Assembly (NCBI GenBank): GCA_964511305.1
Contig: CAZEEU010000002.1
Coordinates: 17,608 to 81,607 of the forward strand
Source: an uncultured Gammaproteobacteria bacterium
GTDB lineage: Bacteria > Patescibacteriota > Microgenomatia > Levybacterales > GWA1-39-11
Direction: 5' to 3'
Length of the DNA: 64,000 nucleotides
Part shown: positions 18,019 to 62,606 of the stretch, piece after piece
Numbering within the stretch: the first letter of the stretch is position 1
Layout of the letters: every line of letters starts with the position of its first letter
Program-made: the position numbers and the translations under genes
The notes under the pieces: model-generated
What the model saw: the letters and a program-made list of their open reading frames with translations, nothing else
Database searches by the model: none
Told to the model about the DNA's origin: nothing

Positions 18019-20151
18019 TCAAGTGGAGAGGTAGCATAATGCAGCAATCGCTGCCCCCTTAAGACAAGCGTTTTCCTTCATGTTTTTTGTGTATATAAGC
18101 TGAGATGAACCTTCTACATTTCGCGCCAAATATTGCTCCAACCTCTCTTTGTATCCTGCCACATTGAATACTCCACCATGGAAAACGACAGCTGTTTTTT
18201 GTGGGTTTTCAAATAATCCAAACGTGTTGCCAATACCTTTTACTACAATAGCAGTCATTCGCGCTGACTCATCGTAAAGAGTAATTGCCCTTGCATCTCC
18301 CTTTTGCGCCAATGTGTTAATTTCGTGTCCGCTAGCTCTTTCCCCACTTAATTTCTCGTACATTTTTTCTATACCCGCTTTTCCTGATGCCACCATTTCT
18401 ACGCACGGATTTTGATTTTCAAATACTCCGCATGGATCCGTAATTCCATGGACATTCAAATCTTCAGACAGGCTGATATGCCCTGGTTCTAAAGCTAGTA
18501 TTTTTCCCTGATGTAGTAATGCGCCACCAAATCCACTTCCAGATATTATATAGAGAACCGACTCAACCTCAGGGTATTTCGAAAGCGCCTCAATTGCTCC
18601 GGCTTTAAGTCCCGCAACAGCATCATTGTCAACCACAGGTTGAGCAAATAATTTAGCAAAATCACTTTGATACATTGCCTCAAATTCGTTCCCAAACTCT
18701 TGAACATTTGGACCCATATGAAGTACTGTTCCATTCAGTGGCCCCGCGACAGAAAGACCAACTTTAAGATTTTTATCAAGAGCTTTACTTGCAACATCTT
18801 CCAAAAATTGAAGGTAACCTTTTCCATAGTCTCCTTTATTCATCATAATCTCACTAGAAGTAATTACTTTCCCGTCATCTACTGCAAAAATTTGAGCTGC
18901 AATTTTGTCTCCACCCAAATCTATTGCATATACCTGCTTACCATTTGAATCCAATAAATCTTTTTGCACTTTACGAACATCAAATTCGCTAAGCTCTTTT
19001 ATGTGAAGAGCATCTCTAGATATTAGATTTAACTGTGAATCGGAAAAAGGTAGAAGGTCAGGGCTCGTTAGATATTCATTTTCTTCGACAACCATACTTT
19101 GGCCACGCTCCATCTCATAAAGAGCAACTATAAAAAGAGATTCAGACCAGCCTAATGGCGTATTATCGTTATAATCAGGAGAGTTTGAAAAATATAACTC
19201 AGGAATTCCACTTGAAGTATCTGCAGCAATAAGATCCTTTATATATTCAAAAGCTTTTTCCTTCTCTCCCCTTTTTTGATAAATAATGGAGAGCCATGCA
19301 AGACCAAAAGTCCACTCGGCCTCTTCACTTACAGTATCCACGTTCTTATTGTAATAGGCATCCCCTTTATATCGAATAACTCCCCGCTCTCGCAAAAGGT
19401 GGTATTCAACATTAGTCAGTATCTCCTCTGTTTCTTCAGGTGTTGTTACGTTGTATGGCCAAATAAGTGAAAGTAGGGATAAATCTACAAACTTTCTAGC
19501 GGATTCTCGGGGCAATAAATCTCGCAACGCCTGCTTCCCATTCTCAATTAGCTCTTTTGGCACAGTAATTTTTTCAAGCCTATTGATCGACTCAAGACCT
19601 GCAACGCATGCACCGACAGAGGACGCATGAAGCTCCTCATCCTCTTCCCACATTCCGCTATCTCGATCTTTCCAATACTCGATTGCACCAAGATACTTTA
19701 CGAGCTTATTAACTATCCTAACATGGTCTTCGTCCTTAAGTATTACTCTCTTGTGATGCTTCTCAAGCTCTCCAATTCTAAAAAGAATGCATCCAATTGC
19801 GTCATTCTGCTTATTACCCCACGACTCCCAAAATTCATCAAATGTAGTTGGGTGGAATCGTGCATGGATATACTGATACGATTCTGTTGGTTTATTTTCG
19901 ATAGCCCAATCGATTTTTGCTTCATGCTTTACAAGTATTTCAAGAATTGCAGCGTATGTATTTTCAACAGTTGCCCAATCATTAATTACCTCAAAGGCAA
20001 TAGTCTCGTAGAAATTATCACGAAGCCAGGACTTGTCATAACCGGTACTTACCGTACGATCTGCTGCAGCAAAAAGCCCAGAATCATACTGAAGGGATCT
20101 TAAAATCTCCAAATGTTTGTCTATTAGTTGTTGATAGGAAAGACGAGCCAT
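18019..20151 (-). CDS. fusion protein: GH15-like (glucoamylase/glucodextranase-type) (alpha/alpha)6 domain plus C-terminal ROK-family sugar kinase
   Basis: N-terminal ~360 aa: SGLFAAADRTVSTGYDKSWLRDNFYE matches the GH15 'sGl.As.s....Y.y.W.RD' signature and six-hairpin pattern. C-terminal ~330 aa: ROK motifs LGGDKIAAQIF, ISGSGFGGALL, Zn-motif DPCGVFENQNPCVEMVASG. Confidence 0.6.
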   Translation of the reverse strand: MARLSYQQLIDKHLEILRSLQYDSGLFAAADRTVSTGYDKSWLRDNFYETIAFEVINDWATVENTYAAILEILVKHEAKIDWAIENKPTESYQYIHARFHPTTFDEFWESWGNKQNDAIGCILFRIGELEKHHKRVILKDEDHVRIVNKLVKYLGAIEYWKDRDSGMWEEDEELHASSVGACVAGLESINRLEKITVPKELIENGKQALRDLLPRESARKFVDLSLLSLIWPYNVTTPEETEEILTNVEYHLLRERGVIRYKGDAYYNKNVDTVSEEAEWTFGLAWLSIIYQKRGEKEKAFEYIKDLIAADTSSGIPELYFSNSPDYNDNTPLGWSESLFIVALYEMERGQSMVVEENEYLTSPDLLPFSDSQLNLISRDALHIKELSEFDVRKVQKDLLDSNGKQVYAIDLGGDKIAAQIFAVDDGKVITSSEIMMNKGDYGKGYLQFLEDVASKALDKNLKVGLSVAGPLNGTVLHMGPNVQEFGNEFEAMYQSDFAKLFAQPVVDNDAVAGLKAGAIEALSKYPEVESVLYIISGSGFGGALLHQGKILALEPGHISLSEDLNVHGITDPCGVFENQNPCVEMVASGKAGIEKMYEKLSGERASGHEINTLAQKGDARAITLYDESARMTAIVVKGIGNTFGLFENPQKTAVVFHGGVFNVAGYKERLEQYLARNVEGSSQLIYTKNMKENACLKGAAIAALCYLST

Positions 20152-48716: not shown

Positions 48717-49619
48717 ATGGCTAAGAATAAGCGTCGTGGCGGTGGATATGGTTTTACAGTTAGTCTTACCGGTCCCGGTACGATTTTTACCATTGGTTTT
48801 ATCACTGTCGCAATCGGCATGGGACTACTTCTTGCACGTGGGGTTGCCCCAAAAAATATGTACTCTGACCCTGGCCCTACTGGAGACCTTGAAGTTATCC
48901 CAGAACCCGCCGATCCGGAGCAAAAAGGTCTTCAACTTAAGACGCTTAAATTCAAAGAATGCGCAAGCACACTTACCATTGATCTACTTGTAGATAAATC
49001 TGATTCCATGAATCGACAAACTAGCTCTGGAGTTGCCAAAATTGCTAGACTTAGGGAAGCGATAAGAGAGCTTATAAGCAATGCGGGAGATGATTCAATA
49101 ATCGGAATCCAATCTTTCACAACTGGCGATATCACAAATGATGTTCCTATTGCCTATTACAAAGACAATAAGTCTACTATCCAGGCAAAAATTACTGCAA
49201 TTGGTGGAAGATCTTCAACTCCTACTTATGAAGCGCTTACGTTTTCCTACAATCATCTAAAAGAGTCTATTCCGAAATTCCCTGCTGATAGGAAGTTCAC
49301 TTTCATATTTATCTCCGATGGTGGTCCATGCCCCGGTTTTGCCTGTCCCGGCAATGCAGGAGCTGATCAAGACCCAAGAATATACAGCCCCAATCCAGCA
49401 GATCAGATCAAAGGATTAGGAGTCGAGGTTTATAGCCTTGGAATTTTCGCCCCAGATGAACGCCAATATGTTTTTCAGATGGAAACCTTGCTAAAAAGCA
49501 TAGCAAGCAAACCAGAAAACTATTTTGCTGCAGAATCAGCAGATGATGTCAAAAGACTTCTTACAACAATTACAAGCAGGCTTTGCACTGGAGGCCCAAC
49601 GCCAACACCGAAGATCTAA
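48717..49619 (+). CDS. membrane-anchored von Willebrand factor A (VWA) domain protein
   Basis: N-terminal TM, MIDAS motif DLLVDKSDSM, VWA fold, C-terminal Cys pair and PTPTP tail. Confidence 0.7.
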   Translation: MAKNKRRGGGYGFTVSLTGPGTIFTIGFITVAIGMGLLLARGVAPKNMYSDPGPTGDLEVIPEPADPEQKGLQLKTLKFKECASTLTIDLLVDKSDSMNRQTSSGVAKIARLREAIRELISNAGDDSIIGIQSFTTGDITNDVPIAYYKDNKSTIQAKITAIGGRSSTPTYEALTFSYNHLKESIPKFPADRKFTFIFISDGGPCPGFACPGNAGADQDPRIYSPNPADQIKGLGVEVYSLGIFAPDERQYVFQMETLLKSIASKPENYFAAESADDVKRLLTTITSRLCTGGPTPTPKI

Positions 49620-49676
49620 CATGAATAAAGAATGTAGAATAAAGAATGTAGAATTAAGAATTAAGAATTAAGCAAT

Positions 49677-50279
49677 ATGTTTTTATTTAAGAAAATCATT
49701 AAAAATGACCCCAATACATTATTCTCATCCCTTAATTCTTCACGGGGTCAGTCTTCTATATATATAGTGATAATTATAATGGTCATAATTTTTGCCGTAA
49801 TGTTTGTAGGTGGCGTAGAATCTCTATCATCCGGCAATGAGGCTTCCCCCGTCAGTATAACGCCATCCGCAGTAGCCGACTCAGGTTCAGCTTCCCCCTC
49901 CGCTGGCTCTGCCTCTCCTACCGCATCAACTTCTCCAACAGCGACTACCGCCCCGGCAACCTGGACTCTTGATGTTATACCTGGTGCGTGTGAAGGATTA
50001 ACTAAGGCTAAGTTCAAAAAGTTTCAGGTAGCCATTAATGGAAACTCCAAGGGCTACATTGCTGTTTCTCAACTAAAGGGAAGCTCTTATGAAGTTTATG
50101 GAACTAGTGAATTCTCACCTCCTCTACAGAATTATACGATGTCTCTACTATCTGACCTTCAATTCGATACAAAACCATGGAAAATAACTATATTTTCAGG
50201 TGGAACAAAAAATGGAGAAAATTGGGTGGGAGGATCAACACAAAAAATATATGACGGCCAACCAACGGGATGCAACTAG
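49677..50279 (+). CDS. membrane-anchored/secreted protein with Ser/Pro/Thr/Ala linker, hypothetical
   Basis: TM helix, SPSAGSASPTASTSPTATTAPA linker, ~110-aa C-terminal domain. Confidence 0.45.
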   Translation: MFLFKKIIKNDPNTLFSSLNSSRGQSSIYIVIIIMVIIFAVMFVGGVESLSSGNEASPVSITPSAVADSGSASPSAGSASPTASTSPTATTAPATWTLDVIPGACEGLTKAKFKKFQVAINGNSKGYIAVSQLKGSSYEVYGTSEFSPPLQNYTMSLLSDLQFDTKPWKITIFSGGTKNGENWVGGSTQKIYDGQPTGCN

Positions 50280-50323
50280 TGACTTGACATGATATATATA
50301 ATTGGTGCAAACTCAAAGTTAGC

Positions 50324-52015
50324 ATGAAATTATTAACAAAAATTAAAAAATTGCTGTTTTTCACCAGCATTTTAATCTTTGCATTATCTGGTCTGAGTTT
50401 TGTAGTATCCCCTAGACCAATAATTCCTGTTGCTCAAGCGGCGTGCCTAATTCCACCTCCAGTGTGCGTCCTTAATTTTTGCGTTGATTCTCCGTTGTGT
50501 GCTCTTGACACGGGTGATCTGAAAGATGCTGGTAAAGTTGCACTTTCACTTGCCGGAAAGGGATTCGGAGAAATTGATGATGTTCTTGCAAAAGTCGCTT
50601 CGCACGGCGGTGACGCTTGTTCAGTTGTTGTTAAACTAGCATCTGAACTTTCACCTGTTGATTTTGATAAGTTGGTTAAAAAATATGGGTGTGATAATAT
50701 TCCAGGTGGTGGTGGCGGTAGTAGTAGCGGTGGTGGCCAAGATGGATTTACCGGGTGTGAAACACCTATTATGACTGAGCGCGGTAGAGACTTCTGCGAA
50801 AGCTTCAGTAGCCATCAATGCTTTTGGTACTCAGGCTATTCCAGCGAATCTCCTAGTTGTAGAACAAATAGTGAAAATATGGATCCCAATCAATTGTGCC
50901 GAGATGGTGGGCATTGCTATATTGGACAGACTTGTCAGCCAGGCAATTATTGTTCATCTACTCCAGAGAGTCCATCAACCAGCCCAGCACCGACCAGTGG
51001 TGGTGGCTCGAGTGGAGGTACAGACACATGCACAGAGGTAGACAGAACAAAAGGTTTTGAGTGGAAATGTATGGATGGCTGCTCCGGGGGGTTCGATGAT
51101 ACCAAGAAGACGAATACTACACCGTTTCACCAATGCACTGCGGGACTAACCTGCTGCGTCAAAAAGACTGTGGCGATTGGCTCTGGCACAGGGACCGGTA
51201 CTGGAAGCACAACTCCTGCTCCAACACCAGCAACGCCAACTGAAATTGGATATTGCGGAGACTCTGTTCCAACATTAGGCACTTTGAAGCCAGTCAATGG
51301 GGCAACATGCGCAACCACTTCAACTGGTAATTTAAGATGGATAAAAAGGAGCACTGATTCATCAGGTTATGATAAATACTGTGATCGTCTAACCGGCCAA
51401 CAACAAGTATACTTCTACGAATGCGCTTCTGGCACGAGTGGTGGTGGATCAACAACACCAACTCCAACTACGACAGCTTCCCCTACCCCAACAACCTTTG
51501 TACCTATTTCTCAAGGTGGTGTGTGCAATCCCGTGCAAGGCCCATGGCAATGTCAGTCACCAAATGTATGTCTTACTGTCCCAGGTGAGGGTAGATGCTG
51601 CCCCGCAGGTACTCAATGGATAAATAATCAGTGCGTAACCCCCACTTCTACTCCAGCACCTACAACAACCCAGACACCTACTAACCCTACACCAATTTCA
51701 ACAGGAAGTACATGCAACGACTATATTCCAGCATCAAATATCCACCAAGTATGTAGAACTGGTGTAAATTCATGTATCGGCACCGAGGTTCAAAATACAG
51801 ATGGAAATAAAGCCTGTTCTGATTTCTACCAAAATACATCAACTTGCTGTCAATTACCTCCAAGCGCGGGACCAGCTGGAGGTTCATGTAATCTACCAGG
51901 AAGAACATGCAATCCTAGCTCAAATACTTCAACAGGAACAAATATTGCATGCACTGGATGCGGAGGATACTGCGTAGGATCAGGCACAACAGGATCCTGC
52001 CAAAATCCCTATTAA
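50324..52015 (+). CDS. large secreted Cys-rich modular protein (Gly/Ser/Thr linkers; 'YCGDS' module)
   Basis: Signal/TM N-terminus, more than 40 Cys in repeated modules separated by GGGSS/TGTGTG/PT linkers. The module IGYCGDSVPTLG recurs in the 56946 protein. Confidence 0.5.
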   Translation: MKLLTKIKKLLFFTSILIFALSGLSFVVSPRPIIPVAQAACLIPPPVCVLNFCVDSPLCALDTGDLKDAGKVALSLAGKGFGEIDDVLAKVASHGGDACSVVVKLASELSPVDFDKLVKKYGCDNIPGGGGGSSSGGGQDGFTGCETPIMTERGRDFCESFSSHQCFWYSGYSSESPSCRTNSENMDPNQLCRDGGHCYIGQTCQPGNYCSSTPESPSTSPAPTSGGGSSGGTDTCTEVDRTKGFEWKCMDGCSGGFDDTKKTNTTPFHQCTAGLTCCVKKTVAIGSGTGTGTGSTTPAPTPATPTEIGYCGDSVPTLGTLKPVNGATCATTSTGNLRWIKRSTDSSGYDKYCDRLTGQQQVYFYECASGTSGGGSTTPTPTTTASPTPTTFVPISQGGVCNPVQGPWQCQSPNVCLTVPGEGRCCPAGTQWINNQCVTPTSTPAPTTTQTPTNPTPISTGSTCNDYIPASNIHQVCRTGVNSCIGTEVQNTDGNKACSDFYQNTSTCCQLPPSAGPAGGSCNLPGRTCNPSSNTSTGTNIACTGCGGYCVGSGTTGSCQNPY

Positions 52016-52023
52016 GATTAAAC

Positions 52024-52668
52024 ATGGAAGAACAACTGCCCACAATACAACAGAGCCCAGAACAACCAAAAAAATCTGGAAATAAAAAGCTTCTCCTTTC
52101 TCTTGGGGGGATTGTTTTAATTTTAGCTATTATTCTTGTTACTTTCTTTGCACTCAAATCAACTTCAATAAAAGAAGAAAAGATAGCACCAAGCTCTGAA
52201 AGCCTTACAAATCCACTAAATATACAAGCTCTGCTAGGTTTTTCTACATTTAACTTGACGGCGGTTGATAAAAGATCCGAAACCGTTGACGTGACACTAG
52301 GAACAACAACTACGGCTGGTATTTCAGGTGGAACTATTGTTATCACCTATGACCCCTTTATGACAAATGACCTAAAGGTAAAACCAATAATTGGATCTAC
52401 CTCTCTTCTTCCAAACGCTATTTTCTCCGAGGTCAAATATAATCCCAACAATATAGTTATCACATTTTCTCTTCCCGAAGGATCTAATCCAGTTACGGGA
52501 TCGGGGAGAATTGCAGCTCTTACCTTTACACCTGTAGCTTACAATAAAACGGATAGATCTACTATATCTTTTGATCTAAAGCGCTCAGAGCTCTATACAA
52601 TAGAAAACGGACAGAAAAAAATATTAAGAGCTTCCCGAGCTGATCTTGATATAAAAATTCAGCCATAA
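52024..52668 (+). CDS. membrane-anchored cohesin-like domain protein
   Basis: TM anchor then a ~150-aa domain: TVDVTLGTTTTAGISGGTIVITYDPFMTNDLKV...GSGRIAALTFTPVAYNKTDRSTISF, matching the cohesin pattern (aG.q..l.YDp.vL ... G..a.itF). Start at the internal ATG 52024. Confidence 0.5.
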   Translation: MEEQLPTIQQSPEQPKKSGNKKLLLSLGGIVLILAIILVTFFALKSTSIKEEKIAPSSESLTNPLNIQALLGFSTFNLTAVDKRSETVDVTLGTTTTAGISGGTIVITYDPFMTNDLKVKPIIGSTSLLPNAIFSEVKYNPNNIVITFSLPEGSNPVTGSGRIAALTFTPVAYNKTDRSTISFDLKRSELYTIENGQKKILRASRADLDIKIQP

Positions 52669-52714
52669 CCTATCCCAAAGTCTATTTCCTCGAATTTATG
52701 GCATACTTATAGAT

Positions 52715-53698
52715 ATGAAGAGTCAAGGATTTATTAATATCGTCATTCCCATCCTTATTCTTGTAACCGCTTTTGCCTTTATGCTTACAAGTGGCAAGAT
52801 GTTCAATATCTCAACCACTAATCCAAATGAAAAATACGAAAGTCCAGTCACTTCCGGAGACTCACAGAAAAAAAATCTTCAATTAAAAAAACTCACTTTT
52901 AAGCCAAAGCCCACTCCCGTTGGGGACGCGTGCAATCATGATATGTCAAAAAAGGTTGACCCAAATGTATGCACCAATTGCATTGCGTGGCTTGTCTACT
53001 GTAAAGATAACGCATGTGTTGATGTTGATACCACTAAATCGAAAATGCCAGGAGACAAAACAACCGTATGCCCAGAGTTTGAAAATTCGGGGTGGTGCAG
53101 AACTCTTGCCATGGAGGGAGACGGATGGTACTGCATAGGCAAGCCAGTAATATACCTCTACCCCACAGTCCCCACCCTTGTTAACGTCAAAATCAGAACA
53201 GAAGGCGCTGTTGTTGTAAGCGATCCCCAAATAGAAAAAGAGAATGGATGGACAAATGTCATGGCTCACCCAAATGGAATACTTTTCTACAACGATCAAC
53301 CATTCCGTGAATTGTTCTACGAGTCGGAGGCGCAAAATGTGAGTCAGCCGAAGGCCGGATTTGTTTTTAAAAAAGAAAATCTTAAAAAGGAATTAACTGA
53401 CTTCATAGAAAAATTAGGTTTAACACGTGAGGATGAAAAGGATGAATTCCTTGAGTGGTGGCTTCCCCGCTTGGAGGCATTTGAGTCTCCATATTGGTTT
53501 GTTTCAATTCTAGAAAAAGATGAAAAAAGACGTATTGATGAAGTGACAATATCTCCCAAGCCCGATACATTTATCGAGTTTATCGCGTATTTCAAGCCAC
53601 TTGAAAATGCTGAAGAAGTTGAAAAATTGATTCTTCCTCCTACTCCACAACGAAAAGGCTTTACAGCCGTCGAATGGGGAGGGGTTATTGGTAAATAA
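52715..53698 (+). CDS. membrane-anchored/secreted protein, hypothetical (shares LQLKxLxFK motif with the VWA protein)
   Basis: TM helix, then KNLQLKKLTFK (compare KGLQLKTLKFK in the 48717 protein), then a Cys-rich region and a ~200-aa domain. Confidence 0.45.
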   Translation: MKSQGFINIVIPILILVTAFAFMLTSGKMFNISTTNPNEKYESPVTSGDSQKKNLQLKKLTFKPKPTPVGDACNHDMSKKVDPNVCTNCIAWLVYCKDNACVDVDTTKSKMPGDKTTVCPEFENSGWCRTLAMEGDGWYCIGKPVIYLYPTVPTLVNVKIRTEGAVVVSDPQIEKENGWTNVMAHPNGILFYNDQPFRELFYESEAQNVSQPKAGFVFKKENLKKELTDFIEKLGLTREDEKDEFLEWWLPRLEAFESPYWFVSILEKDEKRRIDEVTISPKPDTFIEFIAYFKPLENAEEVEKLILPPTPQRKGFTAVEWGGVIGK

Positions 53699-54461: not shown

Positions 54462-55778
54462 ATGCTAAGCCAACAAGATCCAGAAGTTTATGCCATACTC
54501 CAAAAAGAAGACAAGAGACAGCGGGATACTCTAACGCTTATACCTTCAGAAAATTACGCCTCCCTTGAAGTGAGATCCACCCTCGCGTCAGTATTTACAA
54601 ATAAATATTCAGAAGGATATTCAAAGAAAAGATATTATCAGGGAAATGCCAATGCTGATGACATAGAAATGCTAGCAATGGAGCGAGCAAAAAAATTATT
54701 TGGCGTTCCTTTTGTAAATGTCCAACCTTATTCAGGAAGTCCGGCAAATACGGCAGTCTATTTTGCACTACTCGAACCTCTAAAAAGCAAAATTATGGGA
54801 CTTGCTCTGTCATCTGGAGGACATCTAACTCATGGGTCACCTGTTAGCTTTTCTGGCAAATATTTTAAAACTGTCAGCTTTCCTGTAACTCGCGACGGAA
54901 TCCTTGATATGGATGAAATAGAGAAATTGGCCATAAAAGAAAAACCGCAGATCATTGTATGTGGATTCACTGCATACCCACGAATTATTGATTTTGAAAG
55001 ATTTGGCAAGATTGCTGATAAGTGTGGGGCTTATTTACTTGCTGATGTGTCCCATATTGCTGGTCTTATTGCTGGAGGCGCTCATCCTTCACCCGCAAAT
55101 CACGCCCATATCATTATGACTACAACTCACAAATCTCTTCGCGGACCCCGAGGAGCAATGCTTATGGTAACTGAAAAAGGTATTCAAAAAGATCCAGATC
55201 TTCCAGAAAAAATAAATAAGGCGGTTTTTCCAGGCCTCCAAGGAGGACCTCACGATAACCAGACAGCAGCAATCGCTGTTGCGTTAAAAGAAGCCATGAG
55301 CCCGGAATTTAAAAAATATGCTCATCAAATAGTTAAAAACGCGAAAGTTCTTGCTGATGTTCTACTAGCAAATGGCTTTCGTCTTACAACAGGTGGCACG
55401 GAAAATCATTTAATTGTTATAGACACCATGTCAAAAGGGGTTAATGGAGCACTCGCCTCTTACGCTCTGGAGCTTGGGGGGATAATTACCAATAAAAATA
55501 CTATTCCGTATGACACACTTCCCCCTTTCTATCCGTCAGGTGTAAGAATTGGAACTCCTGGAAGTGCCACTCGGGGCATGAAGGAAAAAGAAATGAAGAT
55601 TCTAGGACAATGGATTGCTGATATTATCAAGGAATGCGAAGGAAATGTATTACCGGAGATAAAAGAAGAACGCGGACCTTTCTTTAAGAATTTTAAGAAA
55701 GAAATAGCTGAAAATAAAAAAATCAAAAAAATTGCTCTTGAAGTTAAAAGAACACTCAAAGAATTCCCGCTTCCCTAA
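54462..55778 (+). CDS. glyA: serine hydroxymethyltransferase
   Basis: SHMT signature ...SGGHLTHGSPVSFSGKYF... and PLP-lysine region TTTHKSLRGPRG. Confidence 0.95.
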   Translation: MLSQQDPEVYAILQKEDKRQRDTLTLIPSENYASLEVRSTLASVFTNKYSEGYSKKRYYQGNANADDIEMLAMERAKKLFGVPFVNVQPYSGSPANTAVYFALLEPLKSKIMGLALSSGGHLTHGSPVSFSGKYFKTVSFPVTRDGILDMDEIEKLAIKEKPQIIVCGFTAYPRIIDFERFGKIADKCGAYLLADVSHIAGLIAGGAHPSPANHAHIIMTTTHKSLRGPRGAMLMVTEKGIQKDPDLPEKINKAVFPGLQGGPHDNQTAAIAVALKEAMSPEFKKYAHQIVKNAKVLADVLLANGFRLTTGGTENHLIVIDTMSKGVNGALASYALELGGIITNKNTIPYDTLPPFYPSGVRIGTPGSATRGMKEKEMKILGQWIADIIKECEGNVLPEIKEERGPFFKNFKKEIAENKKIKKIALEVKRTLKEFPLP

Positions 55779-55846
55779 AAAACGCGCTTCTTATTGACAC
55801 TCAAGTCTATCTTCACTACTATGTAAATAGTTGGCCTTATATAGAT

Positions 55847-56959
55847 ATGGTAAAAATTATTCCTCGAATTCTCTTTCTCATTGTAAGCCTTTTTTTTATA
55901 ATCCCTATGAATTTACAAATAAATGCATCAAACGAAAATTCTAAAATAGACACAAATAAAACTTTGGCTTTTATCCCAGGTACAGACAAACTACCAGATA
56001 GCTATATATGGACACAGAATTCATCACCTTGCTCAGCAGGTGAAGCTTATTGTTATCAAGACACAACAGGAAATTACCAACATGGAATCGAAAATACTCA
56101 AAACAATGATTTACCCCCGGCAGATCAATCAGTTAACGATAATCCAAATGGGAACACCAGTCGCAAATCTGGATATGGAGGGGATTGTACAATATTTGGC
56201 GGTTGCGTGAATGAAGGGGTATGCGAACTCACAGACATTGGAGGCATTAACGGTCAATGTGTTGCGCCCAGAACAGCACAGCCAACTAGTTGCAATAGTC
56301 AGAGTGGCCGGGCAAATGGATGCAACTGCGAACAATCAAATAACACTCAATGCGCAAGTCAATATTGTGGTGGACCATATCGAGTAGAAGATGTCTATCG
56401 CAGGGGAAGCCCAAAAACTATCGGCACCTGTCAATCGTCAACGGTGTCTGGTCCATCCGTAACACCTGGCCCTTCAAGTCAGCCTCTTGTATGCGGAATT
56501 ATTGGAGATCCTAATGCAGACGGGATGATTACTGACGCAGATGCCTTATTTGTAGGAAGAATGATGGCTGGCCTTGAAACATCAACTCCCGACAGGATAG
56601 CAAGAGCAGATGTTAATAATGACGCTATTGTAGACAGCAAAGATCAATTAGAAATAAGAAAATATGTTACAAAATTAATTACAACTTTTCGTGCTTGCAA
56701 TAGTTCTAACCCTCCCCAAGTCTTATGTCCTCCTGAGACGACAAATCCCAATACAACACTCAAGAACAAAGGGGATGCAAATTGCAGCGGTACAATAACA
56801 ATTCAAGACTACAATTTATGGCGGGATGAATTCATTGCTAAAGAAGCCAATACAACCAACAGAACAAAGTACGCTGATTTTAATGGTGGGGATGTTACGA
56901 TTTCTGACTATAATATATGGAGAGATAATTTTATAGCTACAAATAATGGAACAAACTAA
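55847..56959 (+). CDS. secreted Cys-rich protein carrying two tandem dockerin-like modules
   Basis: Signal peptide. Dockerin-type Ca-loop pairs GDPNADGMITDAD / ADVNNDAIVDSKD and GDANCSGTITIQD / ADFNGGDVTISD, each followed by a hydrophobic helix (classic D-x-N-x-D-G-x-I-x-x-x-D repeats). Confidence 0.6.
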   Translation: MVKIIPRILFLIVSLFFIIPMNLQINASNENSKIDTNKTLAFIPGTDKLPDSYIWTQNSSPCSAGEAYCYQDTTGNYQHGIENTQNNDLPPADQSVNDNPNGNTSRKSGYGGDCTIFGGCVNEGVCELTDIGGINGQCVAPRTAQPTSCNSQSGRANGCNCEQSNNTQCASQYCGGPYRVEDVYRRGSPKTIGTCQSSTVSGPSVTPGPSSQPLVCGIIGDPNADGMITDADALFVGRMMAGLETSTPDRIARADVNNDAIVDSKDQLEIRKYVTKLITTFRACNSSNPPQVLCPPETTNPNTTLKNKGDANCSGTITIQDYNLWRDEFIAKEANTTNRTKYADFNGGDVTISDYNIWRDNFIATNNGTN

Positions 56960-59042
56960 CAACCCAATCATCCAGTATATTAAGACTCTAAAAAGAAAAC
57001 AGATTTTTATGGCAATTGGTGGTTTAATTGTAGCTGGTGCTCTTGTCACAACGTTATATCTCGTAAAACAATCCCAGGACTTAAGACAACGGGCTTCTGG
57101 AGAAGAAGTTATACTCTCATATTCCCCTTCTCAAATACAATTAGCACAGCATACAGAAACTGCAATTGAGCTTAAAGCCAGAACCATAGCAGCAAATGTG
57201 AATGTTACAGCAATCCAAACGACTGTAAAGTTTGATCAAGATAAAGTCGAGCTCGTGAGATACGAAGACGGTAACAGATCGGCACTACTAACACCTCTTC
57301 AAACTCCGTCACCAAATAATGCAGCAGGTACCATGAGCGTTACCTTCCTGCGACCAACGGCAGACGCAACTGTTCTTAGTGGAGACATCAATCTTGGTCG
57401 GCTAATATTTAAATCTAAAGGAACTATCGGAGTAACTGACATCACGGCAATTAACTCTTTAGTTACTAAGTCTGGATCCTACACTGACATAACGCCGGGA
57501 GTTGAAGTATCCAGTCTCACTGTTTCGTCAAATACATCTGTTACAGTTACGACAGCACCAAGCGGAACAACCGCCCCCTCTCCTTCTCCAAATACTCAGC
57601 CGACAGGCTCACAGGTATATTGTGGAGATTCTAGTCATGTTGGTTGCACGGTTGGACTTTATTCCTGCTACGTTAACCTAGGCAATAATGTAGGCAAGAC
57701 ATGTACAGATGTGTCTGGCAGTAACGGCACATACAATTGCGTTAAATGCGCATATGTCACTCCATCGCCAACGGTATCCCCTAGCACAACCCCTGTACCA
57801 AGAGTTCCTGAATGTGGAGTTTCAACTATTCCACCTACGATAGGAGCTGCCCCACTCAAAGTAGCTTTACATGGTTCTGGAAAGTCAAATGCACTGGGAG
57901 TAGGAATTGCAGGATATGAATGGGATTTTGATGGAAATGGAACATGGGATTCTCCTGTCCAACTTGATTACATAGAACATATTTATACTGTTAATGGTAC
58001 ATATAGACCTAAATTCAGAATTAAGGGTCAAAATGGTAAATACAGTGAGACTTGCACTTACGGATATGAGGTGCTGGTTGGACCCATCTCAACAAATCCC
58101 AACTATGACGTGACCATTATTCCGCCAGCCAATCTTCAACCATCAGGCAATATAGATTCTGGAAGCCGAAATATAACATGGACAGCTTCAGCAAAAGCTG
58201 AGGGAGGTTACTATCTGAGAGTTAATGAGGATGGAATAGATACTACAACTTGGAACGCACCTAGTTGTGATTCGAATACAAATTTAAGAACCGGCGATAT
58301 TTGCGAAACAATTAACACAACCAGCTACTCTTATACATTTAAGCCTGGAAAGAATTACTTTGTATGGGTTCACAGTCGAGCAACTAATGGTAAATACGGT
58401 GAGCCAGTTGCCGCCACTGTAGTCACGCGTGCTGGTTCCGAGCCAACAACTTCACCCACATTAACGCCTACGGCAACTATATTTCCTACTGCAACTCTTG
58501 CACCAAATGATACAGCTATAAATGTGAACATTGCACTTCCTGGTATAGGCACTGGGGCTGAAAATCTGGGACTTAATGCAACCCCAATACACCCACAAAG
58601 AACTGCAACGCTTAAGCTATACGACAATACGAGTGCAAATATTAAAACAGTCGATGCTATCATGACCTACGTGCCACAGTCATCATCCTACTTTGGCCAA
58701 TTCCCATTGGGCACCACATTCCCAACAGGAGTGTATACTGCAAAAATTAAGGTCAACAATGCTCTCTATCGAAGCCTTGTAGGATCAATGCAAATTACAG
58801 GCGGCGTAGCAAATGCGTCTACTATATGGACAGGAACTCCAAGGAATCTTATTAGCGGAGATCTAAATAATGATAATACTCTTGGTATTATTGACTGGAC
58901 CTATATGATAGCTTGCGTAAAGAATGAGGCAGCTTGCACATCCGCAATAAGAGGTCTTGCAGACCTTAACGATAATGGAAGTGTTGACGAGATAGATGTT
59001 CAGATATTACAACGCGGGTTTGCATTACGTGACGGAGACTAA
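56946..59042 (+). CDS. membrane-anchored multidomain surface protein: cohesin-like + Cys-rich 'YCGDS' module + PKD + FN3-like + C-terminal dockerin
   Basis: TM anchor. Cohesin-like segment (TTVKFDQDKVELV...GRLIFKSKGTIGVTDI). PKD motif (GYEWDFDGNGTWDS...HIYTVNGTYRPKFRIKGQNG). Dockerin loops GDLNNDNTLGIID / ADLNDNGSVDEID at the C-terminus. Confidence 0.6.
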   Translation: MEQTNNPIIQYIKTLKRKQIFMAIGGLIVAGALVTTLYLVKQSQDLRQRASGEEVILSYSPSQIQLAQHTETAIELKARTIAANVNVTAIQTTVKFDQDKVELVRYEDGNRSALLTPLQTPSPNNAAGTMSVTFLRPTADATVLSGDINLGRLIFKSKGTIGVTDITAINSLVTKSGSYTDITPGVEVSSLTVSSNTSVTVTTAPSGTTAPSPSPNTQPTGSQVYCGDSSHVGCTVGLYSCYVNLGNNVGKTCTDVSGSNGTYNCVKCAYVTPSPTVSPSTTPVPRVPECGVSTIPPTIGAAPLKVALHGSGKSNALGVGIAGYEWDFDGNGTWDSPVQLDYIEHIYTVNGTYRPKFRIKGQNGKYSETCTYGYEVLVGPISTNPNYDVTIIPPANLQPSGNIDSGSRNITWTASAKAEGGYYLRVNEDGIDTTTWNAPSCDSNTNLRTGDICETINTTSYSYTFKPGKNYFVWVHSRATNGKYGEPVAATVVTRAGSEPTTSPTLTPTATIFPTATLAPNDTAINVNIALPGIGTGAENLGLNATPIHPQRTATLKLYDNTSANIKTVDAIMTYVPQSSSYFGQFPLGTTFPTGVYTAKIKVNNALYRSLVGSMQITGGVANASTIWTGTPRNLISGDLNNDNTLGIIDWTYMIACVKNEAACTSAIRGLADLNDNGSVDEIDVQILQRGFALRDGD

Positions 59043-59124
59043 TATAGAATTAAGGACAATGAATAAAGCGTAAAGAGAAAAGTTGACAGTAAAAGAAAAT
59101 TGCTTAATACTTAATTCTTGATAC

Positions 59125-59745
59125 TTGATTCGAATAATACTGCCTAACATGCCTAAAAAAACGACAATACTAATAGTGATTCTTGCTCTAGTTACAGGAG
59201 TTCTTATTTTCCTTGCGGTACGATCGGATCAAGGACAAAATTTACTCTCGACTGATCAGGGAGAAGCTACCCCTACCCAAGTGCAACCATTTGCAAGCTT
59301 GTCATTTGAGAACCCACTTCTTGATGCTTCAACCGGCCCGACAACACAATCGGTAAATATTGTAATTGATACTCTGGGTAAACCTGCCGCAGGAGCACAA
59401 ATAGAGCTTTCATATAATCCTGCTGTGCTAACGAATGTGAGCGTTAAGACTCCCCAGACGTCTTTCTTTGGAGCAAACCCGAGTGTGCTTATAAATACTG
59501 TTGATCCTACTCAGGGAAGAATCTCTTACGCTGTAGGGATATCTGCATCAGATGCAGAGAAGTCTGGAAATGGTACCTTAGCAACCATAACTTTCACAGT
59601 AAATAGACTCGCTGGTATTGCAACTACTAATCTAACCTTTCTTCCTAAATCTGCTGTAACAACACTGAGTGCTCAGGGGTCAATTCTCAACACCTCAACT
59701 CCCCTTGAGATACGCCTTACACCTCTTCCAACATCTGCCAATTAA
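59125..59745 (+). CDS. membrane-anchored cohesin-domain protein
   Basis: TM anchor then TQSVNIVIDTLGKPAAGAQIELSYNPAVLTNVSV...GNGTLATITFTVNRLAGIATTNLTF, the best cohesin-like match in the window. Confidence 0.6.
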   Translation: MIRIILPNMPKKTTILIVILALVTGVLIFLAVRSDQGQNLLSTDQGEATPTQVQPFASLSFENPLLDASTGPTTQSVNIVIDTLGKPAAGAQIELSYNPAVLTNVSVKTPQTSFFGANPSVLINTVDPTQGRISYAVGISASDAEKSGNGTLATITFTVNRLAGIATTNLTFLPKSAVTTLSAQGSILNTSTPLEIRLTPLPTSAN

Positions 59746-59748
59746 TGC

Positions 59749-60099
59749 ATGTTTATTGATAAAATTTGGAAAAAGAATCAATATGTCCTTCTTGTAGCGG
59801 CAACGGTACTTTTGGGAGCCTGCCTAGCAATACTTATTCTCCTGCGATTTAGTTCCAATAGGCAACAAGAGCATCAACAAAATACAATAACCCAACAGTC
59901 GGCCTCTCAAAATTGCACTGCTCAAAAAATAGCGTGTAACCCTCAATTCATAGACAATAAGAAGATAGCATGTGGATTACTTAAAAATAAGATAATTGAT
60001 GAACTTTTGAAACGAAATGAGTCACCATGTAAGAGTATTAATAGAGAAATAGTTGAAAATCAAATGAATGAAGCATGTCAAATAGGTTGCCCCAAGTAA
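59749..60099 (+). CDS. small membrane-anchored Cys-containing protein, hypothetical
   Basis: TM helix then a ~80-aa segment with 6 Cys. Confidence 0.35.
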   Translation: MFIDKIWKKNQYVLLVAATVLLGACLAILILLRFSSNRQQEHQQNTITQQSASQNCTAQKIACNPQFIDNKKIACGLLKNKIIDELLKRNESPCKSINREIVENQMNEACQIGCPK

Positions 60100-60147
60100 C
60101 TTCTGTAGTTGATTTAAGTGATAGCATTCTGAAATAATGTAACTAAT

Positions 60148-60510
60148 ATGGCAGACATACCACAAAATTCATTTCAAGGACCTTTGGCTCCAAAATATGG
60201 ATTAAATGACAATTTCAGAAATCCGATTCCGGCTGGACCCAAAGTTAATATTCCAAAAAACAGAAATTACGGGCGACTTATACCGGTGGGCGCAGTTGCA
60301 CTTGCGCTTCTTATTCTTCCTTTAACTATCCAGCAGCTTGGCCAGCAACAAGATAATAGACAGCAAGCATCTCAACCAACTCCTACAATATCGCTACCTG
60401 CCCAGGTGACTTCCCCGACATCAACCCCGACACCTATAGGCCTTACTCCAACACCAACCTCTACAGTAGAATTAGTACCACCACTTCAAGCAACTTCTTC
60501 CGGGAATTAA
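60148..60510 (+). CDS. small membrane-anchored Pro/Thr-rich protein, hypothetical
   Basis: Central TM helix then a PT-rich tail (SPTSTPTPIGLTPTPTSTV). Confidence 0.35.
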   Translation: MADIPQNSFQGPLAPKYGLNDNFRNPIPAGPKVNIPKNRNYGRLIPVGAVALALLILPLTIQQLGQQQDNRQQASQPTPTISLPAQVTSPTSTPTPIGLTPTPTSTVELVPPLQATSSGN

Positions 60511-60513
60511 ATT

Positions 60514-61026
60514 TTAATGGTGCCCTGAACCTGGCTTAGAAAGCACTGGGGTATTTCCACGTCTTACTTTTGCTGCAAAATCAGCAGCCATGTCCCCAGC
60601 TGCATATGCCATAAGTCCTACCCCTGCTACAGGGTGAGCAGCTCCTAGAACTCCCAGGATTGTAAGTCCCATACCGGCACGTTTTACGCCCTTGTCCATT
60701 GTCTGCTCGAATGGACCTTGATGCTCGGGGAACATACCTTTCTTTGATCTATTCTTAAATTTTGCCATCATGTCTGCCATAAAATCTCCAGCTGCATACG
60801 TAAGCAGACTCAAACCTACCACGGGATGACTCATGGCGATTGTTCCTATTGCTACAAGGGCAAGGCTTGCCCCCCATTTGATTTTTTTATCTGCGAAATT
60901 CTCAGTTATTCCCTCATGATGTACAAAGGTTGCAAATTGAGGTTCTGAATGAGAAGCCTCATGACTTGCTTCATGTCCACGCGTCTCAGCAGGTGCTGCA
61001 TGTGATGGTCCGTGTTCTGCGCTCAT
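60514..61026 (-). CDS. membrane protein with His-rich N-terminus and two internal repeats, hypothetical
   Basis: Repeats HPVVGLSLLTYAAGDFMADMMAKF and HPVAGVGLMAYAAGDMAADFAAKV. N-terminal HEASHEASH. Confidence 0.45.
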   Translation of the reverse strand: MSAEHGPSHAAPAETRGHEASHEASHSEPQFATFVHHEGITENFADKKIKWGASLALVAIGTIAMSHPVVGLSLLTYAAGDFMADMMAKFKNRSKKGMFPEHQGPFEQTMDKGVKRAGMGLTILGVLGAAHPVAGVGLMAYAAGDMAADFAAKVRRGNTPVLSKPGSGHH

Positions 61027-61394: not shown

Positions 61395-61466
61395 AGGCGC
61401 GGAAGGGAATCGAACCCTCGCATAGAAGTTTTGCAGACTCCCGTGTTACCACTTCACCACCGCGCC
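61395..61466 (-). tRNA. tRNA-Cys (anticodon GCA)
   Basis: Reverse complement folds as GGCGCGG|TG|GTG-AAGTGGTAA-CAC|G|GGAGT-CTGCAAA-ACTTC|TATGC|GAGGG-TTCGATT-CCCTT|CCGCGCC|T. 7-bp acceptor stem, T-loop TTCGATT, U33 and A37 present, anticodon GCA. CCA not encoded. Confidence 0.85.
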
Positions 61467-61550: not shown

Positions 61551-62606
61551 GTGAACAAAAAAATAATCTTAATTGCCTTAATAGTGCTTGTTCTTATAGG
61601 TGTTGTCGTCACAACTCTTCTTATTAGACAAAACCAGGACAATAGACAGCGAGCTGATGAAGGAACTCCTACGACAACACAAGGTCCTACTCTCGACACA
61701 GAAGAATGGAATTTCGTTAGGATTTTGAACGAACATAGGCAAGAAATAGGACACAATCCACTTAAAGTGTCCCAAAAATTAACACTAGCAGCTAGATGGA
61801 TGTCAACAGACATGGCAGCAAGAAATATATTGCCCGCTGATCATTCAGATTCGCTTGGCAGGCAATTCCAAAACAGAATAAGATCATTTGGCTACAACGC
61901 CGTACCTATTGGAGAAAATATAGCAAAAGTTGGTGCAACCGGTCAAAACGCATTTGATGCTTGGCTCGCCTCAACAATGGGGCATAAAGAAGAAATGGAA
62001 AGCCCTGCAAGAAGTGTTATTGGTATTGCTAGAGTTCAAAGTGGAAATAGCTGGTATTGGACTGCAGACTTCGGGCCATCGTTAGACTCCGAAATTACTC
62101 CAACGACAACTCCATCTATTACTGATAGCCCTACCCCATCAACAACAGTATCTCCTACATTATCAGTTACTACAACCCAAGAGCCCACAATAACTGCCTC
62201 ACCAACAACTGTAATAGTAACCCCTTCTAATACGGTAACTCCTACGTTGACCGCAACTTCGACACCCACGTCTACAGCAACGCCAACACCAACTTCGACT
62301 CCTACCGCAACTCCTACCCCAACGCCTAGTCCAACAAAAGTACCAACAAGCACACCAACTCCTACATCCAAACCAACTGCTACTCCCACAGCTACGTCCA
62401 TTCCAACTGTGCCTCCAACGGCAACTCCAACAATCCTACCAACTGTAATTGCTCATATATCACCAACCCCTACACAATTGCCGCCTATTGCAACGAGCAC
62501 TCCAGTACCATCCATAGCACAACCAGGAGGACTCGTACCTACTCTGGGTATATTTGGTGGAATTTTGGTCGTGATCGTTGCTGGAATATTCTTGTTAGCA
62601 CTTTAG
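61551..62606 (+). CDS. membrane-anchored CAP (SCP/PR-1-like, YkwD-type) domain protein with long Pro/Thr linker and C-terminal TM
   Basis: N-terminal TM. CAP-domain motifs (LNEHR...G..PL, HK..M, SWYWTADFG). ~130-aa (PT/ST)n linker. C-terminal hydrophobic helix. Confidence 0.7.
   Translation: MNKKIILIALIVLVLIGVVVTTLLIRQNQDNRQRADEGTPTTTQGPTLDTEEWNFVRILNEHRQEIGHNPLKVSQKLTLAARWMSTDMAARNILPADHSDSLGRQFQNRIRSFGYNAVPIGENIAKVGATGQNAFDAWLASTMGHKEEMESPARSVIGIARVQSGNSWYWTADFGPSLDSEITPTTTPSITDSPTPSTTVSPTLSVTTTQEPTITASPTTVIVTPSNTVTPTLTATSTPTSTATPTPTSTPTATPTPTPSPTKVPTSTPTPTSKPTATPTATSIPTVPPTATPTILPTVIAHISPTPTQLPPIATSTPVPSIAQPGGLVPTLGIFGGILVVIVAGIFLLAL

Follow-up and report, generated by a model that had tools for sequence, protein, structure and literature searches.

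A membrane-helix cohesin and its dockerin-encoding gene neighbours in a Levybacterales genome

Two short cohesin proteins and their gene neighbourhoods

A 64-kb stretch of Levybacterales DNA (contig CAZEEU010000002.1; hereafter the window) encodes two short proteins, cohA and cohB, that an earlier sequence-only reading had described as a membrane anchor, a linker and one cohesin-like module, and had put forward as candidate cell-surface receptors for dockerin proteins. Both open reading frames (ORFs) are real and lie on the + strand, and in each product a short variable linker joins an N-terminal helix to a single cohesin, as judged from Pfam matches, AlphaFold2 models and Foldseek comparisons (Table 1). 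The mechanical ORF of cohA opens at a TTG at position 59125, and the homologues share a start at the ATG at 59149. All ~79 of them begin with MPKKT, so this ATG is almost certainly the real start. The homologues of cohB all begin with MEEQLP.

Sequence and fold both place cohA and cohB in the cohesin domain family. Against the Pfam Cohesin model PF00963 (gathering cut-off 24.1 bits), the score of cohA is 36.5 bits (E 6.5e-9). That of cohB, at 26.0 bits (E 1.1e-5), is barely above the cut-off. The hallmark motifs quoted in the sequence-only reading occur in both proteins, as AAGAQIELSYNPAVL and GTLATITFTV in cohA and as ISGGTIVITYDPFMT and GRIAALTFTP in cohB. No NCBIfam family model matches either protein. 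AlphaFold2 models, built on family alignments, show for cohA (pLDDT 90.4) a helix spanning residues 3–32, a disordered linker and a nine-strand beta-sandwich; the cohB model (pLDDT 82, with the domain mostly >90) has the same three parts, with the helix at residues 22–46. An hhalign comparison of the two families gave a probability of 98.1% at 23% identity, confined to the cohesin domain.

In a Foldseek search of the PDB, cohesins fill the top 47–50 ranks for the two models. The best match for both is Clostridium acetobutylicum CohA2 (E 3e-10 for cohA and 6e-10 for cohB), with target-normalised TM-scores of 0.74–0.79. By structure, then, the models are nearest to type I cohesins, which give scores of 0.74–0.79 on this measure; the corresponding scores are 0.51–0.56 for type II cohesins and ~0.5 for the type III cohesin of ScaE, and the type II/III insertions are absent from the cohA and cohB fold. 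By sequence, the best match of the cohA profile among PDB sequences is the type II cohesin of SdbA (E 2.4e-4).

Only two ORFs in the window bear dockerins, according to a motif scan and a locally built dockerin hidden Markov model (HMM), and these are the two genes immediately before cohA, on its strand. The first overlaps the second by 14 nt, and the second ends 106 nt before cohA. Across these 5 kb, a gene for a dockerin-only protein is followed by one for a cohesin-to-dockerin protein and then by cohA, the membrane-helix cohesin. The dockerin-only protein, of 370 residues, has a classical module followed by a variant one. The variant lacks a Pfam match of its own (only residues 220–274 are listed for this protein), is conserved in the orthologues at two related loci (L004 and L005), and is the only dockerin-like module detected at a third (L003). 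The cohesin-to-dockerin protein, of 698 residues, has the one Pfam cohesin match found beyond cohA and cohB, a module that the sequence-only reading did not list; its PKD-like and fn3-like regions are sub-threshold. With cohB included, there are three cohesins and three dockerin modules in the region. A scan of 55700..60700 for promoters and terminators returned counts at chance level, and is uninformative on operon structure.

cohB, a paralogous membrane-anchored cohesin, lies 3 kb upstream of the dockerin and cohA genes and belongs to a second conserved cluster of surface-protein genes (48717..53698). This cluster encodes, in order, a membrane-anchored VWA protein, a 200-residue single-helix protein, a 563-residue protein, cohB, and a 327-residue single-helix protein with a Cys-rich region. 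Besides cohB, the VWA protein is the only member with a domain match. The family of cohB is small (10 clusters). The cluster order is kept at a related locus (L001), and the synteny of cohB with the Cys-rich protein, and with a cohA module a few kb away, is conserved (L001, L085). No dockerin was found in the genes of the cohB cluster, including that for the 563-residue protein, by motif scan and the local dockerin HMM. Dockerin pairing is supported for cohA only.

Table 1. Coordinates of cohA, cohB and neighbouring features in the window.
Feature	Coordinates	Strand	Description	Evidence
563-aa protein	50324..52015	+	Secreted, Cys-rich, Thr/Pro-rich; directly upstream of cohB, gap 8 nt	No dockerin detected
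cohB	52024..52668	+	214 aa: 22-residue N-terminal tail, helix, linker, one cohesin	Pfam, AlphaFold2, PDB fold matches
cohB hydrophobic helix	52090..52155	+	Residues 23–44	Kyte-Doolittle, AlphaFold2
cohB cohesin domain	52228..52662	+	Residues 69–213	Pfam, AlphaFold2, fold search
370-aa protein	55847..56959	+	Secreted, Cys-rich, two dockerin modules	Dockerin_1 44.9 bits
First dockerin module of 370-aa protein	56483..56692	+	Residues 213–282; classical	Pfam, local HMM
Second dockerin module of 370-aa protein	56768..56941	+	Residues 308–365; variant; GDANCSGTITIQDYNLWRDEF ... ADFNGGDVTISDYNIWRDNF	Local HMM
698-aa candidate cargo/adaptor	56946..59042	+	Transmembrane helix, LVKQSQDLRQRA motif, cohesin, Cys-rich, PKD-like, fn3-like and Ig-like regions, C-terminal dockerin	
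Cohesin of 698-aa protein	57192..57503	+	Residues 83–186	28.0 bits, cut-off 24.1
C-terminal dockerin of 698-aa protein	58824..59039	+	Residues 627–698; two Ca-loop repeats, two conserved Cys, ends RDGD	25.6 bits, cut-off 22.9
cohA	59149..59745	+	198 aa: N-terminal helix, linker, one cohesin	Pfam, AlphaFold2, PDB fold matches
cohA hydrophobic helix	59161..59220	+	Residues 5–24, TTILIVILALVTGVLIFLAV, after MPKK	Kyte-Doolittle, AlphaFold2, conservation
cohA cohesin domain	59290..59715	+	Residues 48–189	Pfam, AlphaFold2, fold search
Small single-helix protein	59749..60099	+	Cys-containing; directly downstream of cohA	
120-aa protein	60148..60510	+	Helix, LGQQQDNRQQAS motif, Pro/Thr-rich tail; conserved downstream of cohA in related loci	

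A conserved dockerin–cohesin gene pair

The cohA family comprises 79 clusters in the protein database, all of 185–240 residues, and a precomputed PF00963 match exists for 54 of them. The sole informative source name among the clusters is [quoted passage not shown]. When one genome of each species was scanned, 77 loci were found, for which the informative labels are Candidatus Levyibacteriota/Levybacteria or Patescibacteria group. Many metagenome-assembled genomes that carry the Levybacteria-type gene (L006–L082) are labelled uncultured Gammaproteobacteria or Pseudomonadales, and a few are labelled Acidiferrales, Sulfotelmatobacter, Limnocylindrales or Methylomirabilota; in both cases the label is probably a placeholder or the contig mis-binned.

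For the analysis of gene pairing, ORFs were called in the window, in four loci fetched through homologues and in the 77 loci of the species scan, and were searched with local cohesin and dockerin HMMs. The sample consisted of the 76 short (150–280 residues) cohesin-only ORFs that had 1.5 kb or more of sequence upstream. In 46 of these 76 cases the next gene upstream, on the same strand, encodes a protein with a dockerin at its C-terminal end. The two genes are 4–218 nt apart, and the dockerin match ends 3–29 residues from the C-terminus. As a background, 98 of the 802 ORFs of at least 150 residues in the same loci have a dockerin, a figure drawn from loci that are already enriched for dockerin genes. 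By inspection, every locus that has upstream sequence and at least 40% identity to cohA shows the dockerin–cohesin pair. Two loci (L010 and L028) have a tandem duplication of the pair. The receptor role suggested for both proteins therefore has strong circumstantial backing for cohA, from the dockerin gene directly upstream and the recurrence of this arrangement, and none from gene neighbourhood for cohB.

The adjacent dockerins belong to one subtype, with the consensus GDxxxDNxLxxxDY..C..C..ADLNDDGxxDxxDxN..R.F..R.GD-COOH. It has two calcium-loop repeats, two conserved Cys residues between them and an invariant terminal R(N/D/Q)GD, and is seen in 49 upstream proteins. In the dockerin of the 698-residue protein, the corresponding residues C657, C664 and G697 are nearly invariant.

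What do these dockerins deliver? Among 42 neighbouring dockerin proteins that were scanned, the domains found are SdrD_B, SpaA, fn3, Big_1, VWA, PKD and CarboxypepD_reg, and six of the 42 contain a detectable cohesin. The profile of the N-terminal domain of the 698-residue protein family aligns to the cohA cohesin profile (E 2e-5), and for that reason the cohesin-to-dockerin architecture is probably general among the cargo proteins. Not one of the 42 contains a glycoside hydrolase domain or a carbohydrate-binding module (CBM), and the dockerin proteins of the window contain no carbohydrate-active enzyme domain. Since the cargo carries adhesin-type domains and no carbohydrate-active enzyme, the system is non-cellulosomal.

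These data bear on the idea that the system is a reduced but genuine cellulosome, by which enzymes that degrade polysaccharides are tethered to the cell. Cohesin and dockerin modules in a scaffoldin-like gene order are what such a system would have, and GH53-like genes lie a few kb away in related loci. But the dockerin proteins adjoining cohA-type genes are devoid of glycoside hydrolase and CBM domains, and the glycoside hydrolase-like proteins of the window that were scanned (one GH15–ROK and one GH63-like) have no dockerin match. We regard a reduced cellulosome as highly improbable, and we rejected a true cellulosome for want of a carbohydrate-active enzyme on any neighbouring dockerin protein. 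The likeness to cellulosomal anchoring scaffoldins drawn by the sequence-only reading is thus one of gene order and logic, and does not extend to content.

One related locus (L004, 13529..20597) encodes two M4 (thermolysin-like) peptidases, an SdrD_B–dockerin protein and a further cohesin protein of 360 residues. This neighbourhood suggests a larger cohesin–dockerin network that may include proteases.

Two further observations concern whether cohA and the adjacent dockerins interact. First, pairwise distances between cohA-type cohesins are correlated with those between the adjacent dockerins (Mantel r 0.52). In a control comparison of the cohesin with the 125 residues before the dockerin, r was 0.40, and the partial r was 0.37. 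The co-variation of distances is suggestive, not decisive, in favour of a real cohesin–dockerin interaction. Second, the cohA family conserves strands 8-3-6-5, which by analogy with solved cohesins form the canonical dockerin-binding face, more strongly than the other sheet (mean entropy 1.08 versus 1.65 bits, p 8e-4). Adjacent single-cohesin and single-dockerin genes in Cellulosilyticum lentocellum have been found experimentally to encode products that bind each other (PMC13487519). Taken together, the adjacent dockerin genes, the conserved 8-3-6-5 sheet and the co-variation point indirectly to a putative Ca2+-dependent binding of dockerins by cohA.

The N-terminal helix and its likely topology

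Each protein has one uncharged hydrophobic stretch of 20–22 residues, with Kyte-Doolittle 19-mer maxima of 3.07 (cohA) and 2.91 (cohB). Lys residues lie on its N-terminal side, in MPKK for cohA and in KKSGNKK for cohB, and by the positive-inside rule the cohesin is predicted to be outside the cell. Hydrophobicity and charge distribution therefore predict an N-in/C-out orientation, in favour of the sequence-only reading. For cohA, this topology, with the helix kept in the mature protein, is the most likely arrangement. A Pfam scan found no SLH domain in cohA or cohB, and sequence inspection found no LPXTG motif with a hydrophobic tail (cohA ends LPTSAN), as had been noticed from the sequence at the outset. 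The C-terminal tail is short and unconserved in the cohA family. A type IV pilin-like signal was considered and rejected, as inspection of both sequences revealed no G|F..E motif; a lipoprotein was likewise rejected (no Cys).

The helix of cohA is the best-conserved part of the protein. Its consensus in the family is MPKKTTILIVILAxITGxLIFLAVRSDQ. Mean identity to the window sequence is 82% for the helix and 55% for the cohesin, and the helix is the more conserved of the two in 78 of the 79 homologues. A related helix (MPRKTLALISGLVLVT...) persists in an orphan cohA subfamily whose loci lack a dockerin gene within 12 kb. With the N-terminal 44 residues of cohA as query, a word-index homologue search returned no candidates; a full phmmer scan with the first 46 residues, covering 1.84 billion representative proteins, returned only four matches, all of 157–219 residues. 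Because these few matches are all of the size of the family, the helix is specific to the family, and not a detectable shared or portable sorting signal. It more likely packs against a specific membrane partner. The suggestion that the helix itself is the anchor is consequently supported in part: a hydrophobic N-terminal helix is present and SLH and sortase signals are absent, but a passive anchor does not explain a helix that is better conserved than the cohesin it carries.

An alternative explanation for the helix is that it is a cleavable Sec signal peptide. The mature forms of cohA and cohB would then be soluble cohesins of ~170 residues, acting as adaptors or caps for dockerin proteins. 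Autonomous single-cohesin proteins do exist, and one of them, Ruminococcus flavefaciens ScaG, is among the fold matches (4n2o, 4wkz). Moreover, the V-R-S|D of cohA fits the -3/-1 rule, as does the A-L-R-A|G of the orphan subfamily. Against cleavage stand the length of the uncharged stretch (20–22 residues), with no helix breaker before the putative site, and the AlphaFold2 model of cohA, in which one continuous helix runs up to residue 32. Several cohA homologues have Asn at position -1. Finally, signal peptides are usually poorly conserved, unlike the N-terminal segment of cohA. For these reasons we consider a cleaved signal peptide unlikely.

A second alternative is that these are domains of cohesin fold that do not bind dockerins, and that they are subunits of some other membrane complex in which the conserved helix packs on a partner. 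The adjacency of dockerin genes would then reflect a shared neighbourhood of surface genes. The conservation of the helix over the ectodomain accords with this, as does the finding that ~40% of family members, and cohB, have no nearby dockerin gene. Small single-helix proteins are also conserved just downstream of cohA-type genes. Yet a shared neighbourhood would not readily account for the immediate dockerin-then-cohesin order at 46 loci or its duplication as a unit. The conserved sheet is also the canonical dockerin-binding one, and the distances of cohesin and dockerin co-vary beyond the control. We consider this second alternative quite unlikely.

A candidate surface assembly and its relation to known systems

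We propose that cohA is a type II membrane socket for the dockerin of the upstream 698-residue protein, within a hierarchical, non-covalent and adhesin-like surface assembly, and we assign this reading a probability of roughly 0.6. In this Levybacterium, a member of the Microgenomates within the candidate phyla radiation (CPR), cohA would be a type II (N-in/C-out) protein whose single type-I-like cohesin projects from the cytoplasmic membrane on a linker of ~20 residues. This socket would hold the calcium-type C-terminal dockerin of the 698-residue protein at the cell surface. The N-terminal cohesin of the 698-residue protein could in turn recruit the Cys-rich 370-residue protein with its two dockerins. 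The outcome would be a small hierarchical assembly of adhesin-like surface proteins, held together non-covalently and lacking glycoside hydrolases, analogous to the chain of anchoring scaffoldin, primary scaffoldin and dockerin protein in cellulosomes. The hierarchical logic follows from the upstream product, which combines a C-terminal dockerin with a cohesin of its own. The domains, the fold, the hydrophobic helix, the recurring gene pair and the domain content of the cargo are observed; the topology, the persistence of the helix in the mature protein and each cohesin–dockerin pairing in the scheme are inferred.

Several observations weigh against this proposal. No nearby dockerin gene accompanies 30 of the 76 family members, nor cohB, and the mirror-tree signal is only modestly above its control. 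The very high conservation of the cohA helix suggests a role beyond anchoring, for which the proposal does not account. The V-R-S|D sequence after this helix, with its fit to the -3/-1 rule, is a possible signal-peptidase site, although the helix is long, well conserved and modelled as continuous, which speaks against cleavage. A linker of only ~20 residues would keep the cohesin close to the membrane, probably under any wall or S-layer, and off the outer surface. Lastly, the 698-residue cargo has an N-terminal helix of its own, and so has no obvious need of a second anchor unless that helix is removed.

The last point is of interest in view of a strongly conserved QQDxRQRA motif that follows the N-terminal helix of the cargo. 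The module, a helix followed by (I/L)xQQQD(I/L/N/T)RQ(R/Q)A(S/D), is present in the 698-residue protein (residues ~19–51), in the 120-residue protein downstream of cohA (~41–78) and in the product of 61551..62606 (~1–36). It heads at least three unrelated families of secreted proteins: the cohesin–dockerin proteins, the 120-residue Pro/Thr-rich protein and a CAP/YkwD-domain protein. A regular expression for the module has 66 matches within the first 120 residues of ORFs from the window and the related loci, with many such ORFs in L001–L082. No match to the module was found in Pfam or NCBIfam. The helix and QQDxRQRA motif together may be an undescribed sorting or processing signal. If the motif were a cleavage site, which is speculation, the cargo would depend on the cohA socket for its retention at the cell.

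These ideas can be extended to an appendage with a tip, a shaft and a base. The dockerin-only protein, a cohesin-to-dockerin protein of the SpaA/SdrD/fn3 type and cohA would respectively build these parts of a non-covalent structure that attaches episymbiotic CPR bacteria to their hosts; QQDxRQRA would be the processing signal that frees the shaft, and the cohA helix would dock the base into a membrane partner. We consider this extension unlikely as it stands. If true, the appendage would be a functional counterpart of sortase-assembled pili.

How does the proposed socket compare with cohesin–dockerin systems already described? The closest resemblance in gene order is to the cellulosomal anchoring scaffoldins (C. 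thermocellum SdbA, OlpB and Orf2p; R. flavefaciens ScaE), where, as in the cipA-olpB-orf2p-olpA cluster, the gene for a cell-attached cohesin likewise comes after a gene for a protein with cohesin and dockerin. These scaffoldins are attached by C-terminal SLH repeats or a sortase signal, in contrast to the N-terminal membrane helix of cohA. cohA further differs from them in its single cohesin, its fold nearest to type I, its adhesin-like, non-enzymatic cargo and its CPR host. Of the features that define an anchoring scaffoldin, the SLH or LPXTG module and the cargo of carbohydrate-active enzymes are missing here, and an adjacent gene for a scaffoldin that ends in a dockerin is found beside cohA but not beside cohB.

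Both bacteria and archaea are known to have cohesins and dockerins outside cellulosomes (Peer et al. 2009, as cited in PMC9012536), and roles in cell–cell contact have been proposed for them (PMC9012536). Those of Archaeoglobus fulgidus, whose cohesin 2xdh is among our fold matches, and of ANME archaea are similar to the present system in being single modules on non-catalytic, surface-associated proteins of non-cellulolytic organisms. By contrast, cohA is a dedicated protein of ~200 residues with a highly conserved helix, paired genetically with its presumed dockerin partner in dozens of genomes. The ClcC/ClcD system of C. lentocellum is also a two-gene unit, of one cohesin and one dockerin protein, and its heterodimer has been shown experimentally (PMC13487519). 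ClcC includes a CBM, ClcD is a GH5 cellulase, and the text of that paper contains neither “transmembrane” nor “membrane anchor” (PMC13487519). The system in the window differs in having a membrane helix and no CBM or enzyme. The cohesin-like modules of Clostridium perfringens (FIVAR–dockerin/cohesin pairs of toxin-associated glycoside hydrolases) are likewise non-cellulosomal folds for protein–protein assembly, and three of them (2jh2, 2vo8, 2w1n) are among the fold matches of the cohA and cohB models; they are embedded in large secreted enzymes, whereas cohA and cohB stand alone and are membrane-anchored.

That such proteins have a cohesin domain is already recorded in their NCBI labels. In the searchable literature on cohesins and dockerins in CPR, Microgenomates and Levybacteria, we found no paper that describes a system of the cohA type. 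What appears to be new is the dedicated architecture of ~200 residues, with one cohesin and a hyper-conserved helix, and its conserved pairing with one dockerin subtype on adhesin-like proteins. Both appear to be restricted to Levybacteria and related CPR lineages.

CPR bacteria, or Patescibacteria, are thought to live attached to other cells, and how they build their surfaces is poorly understood. The cohA module offers a concrete hypothesis for the assembly of surface proteins in Levybacteria. If the proposal is correct, it would extend cohesin–dockerin biology to a new mode of anchoring and a new lineage. The dozens of naturally paired cohesin and dockerin sequences could also serve as orthogonal parts for protein assembly.

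The remainder of the window has the appearance of ordinary chromosome, with a G+C content of 39%. It encodes serine hydroxymethyltransferase, dCTP deaminase, adenylosuccinate lyase, an ABC ATPase, Nramp, MgtE and a histidine kinase, and the sole Rfam match is a tRNA at 61395..61466. An ORF of 710 residues on the - strand (18019..20151) is an apparent fusion of a GH15 glucoamylase-like N-terminal region with a ROK-family sugar kinase/regulator domain.

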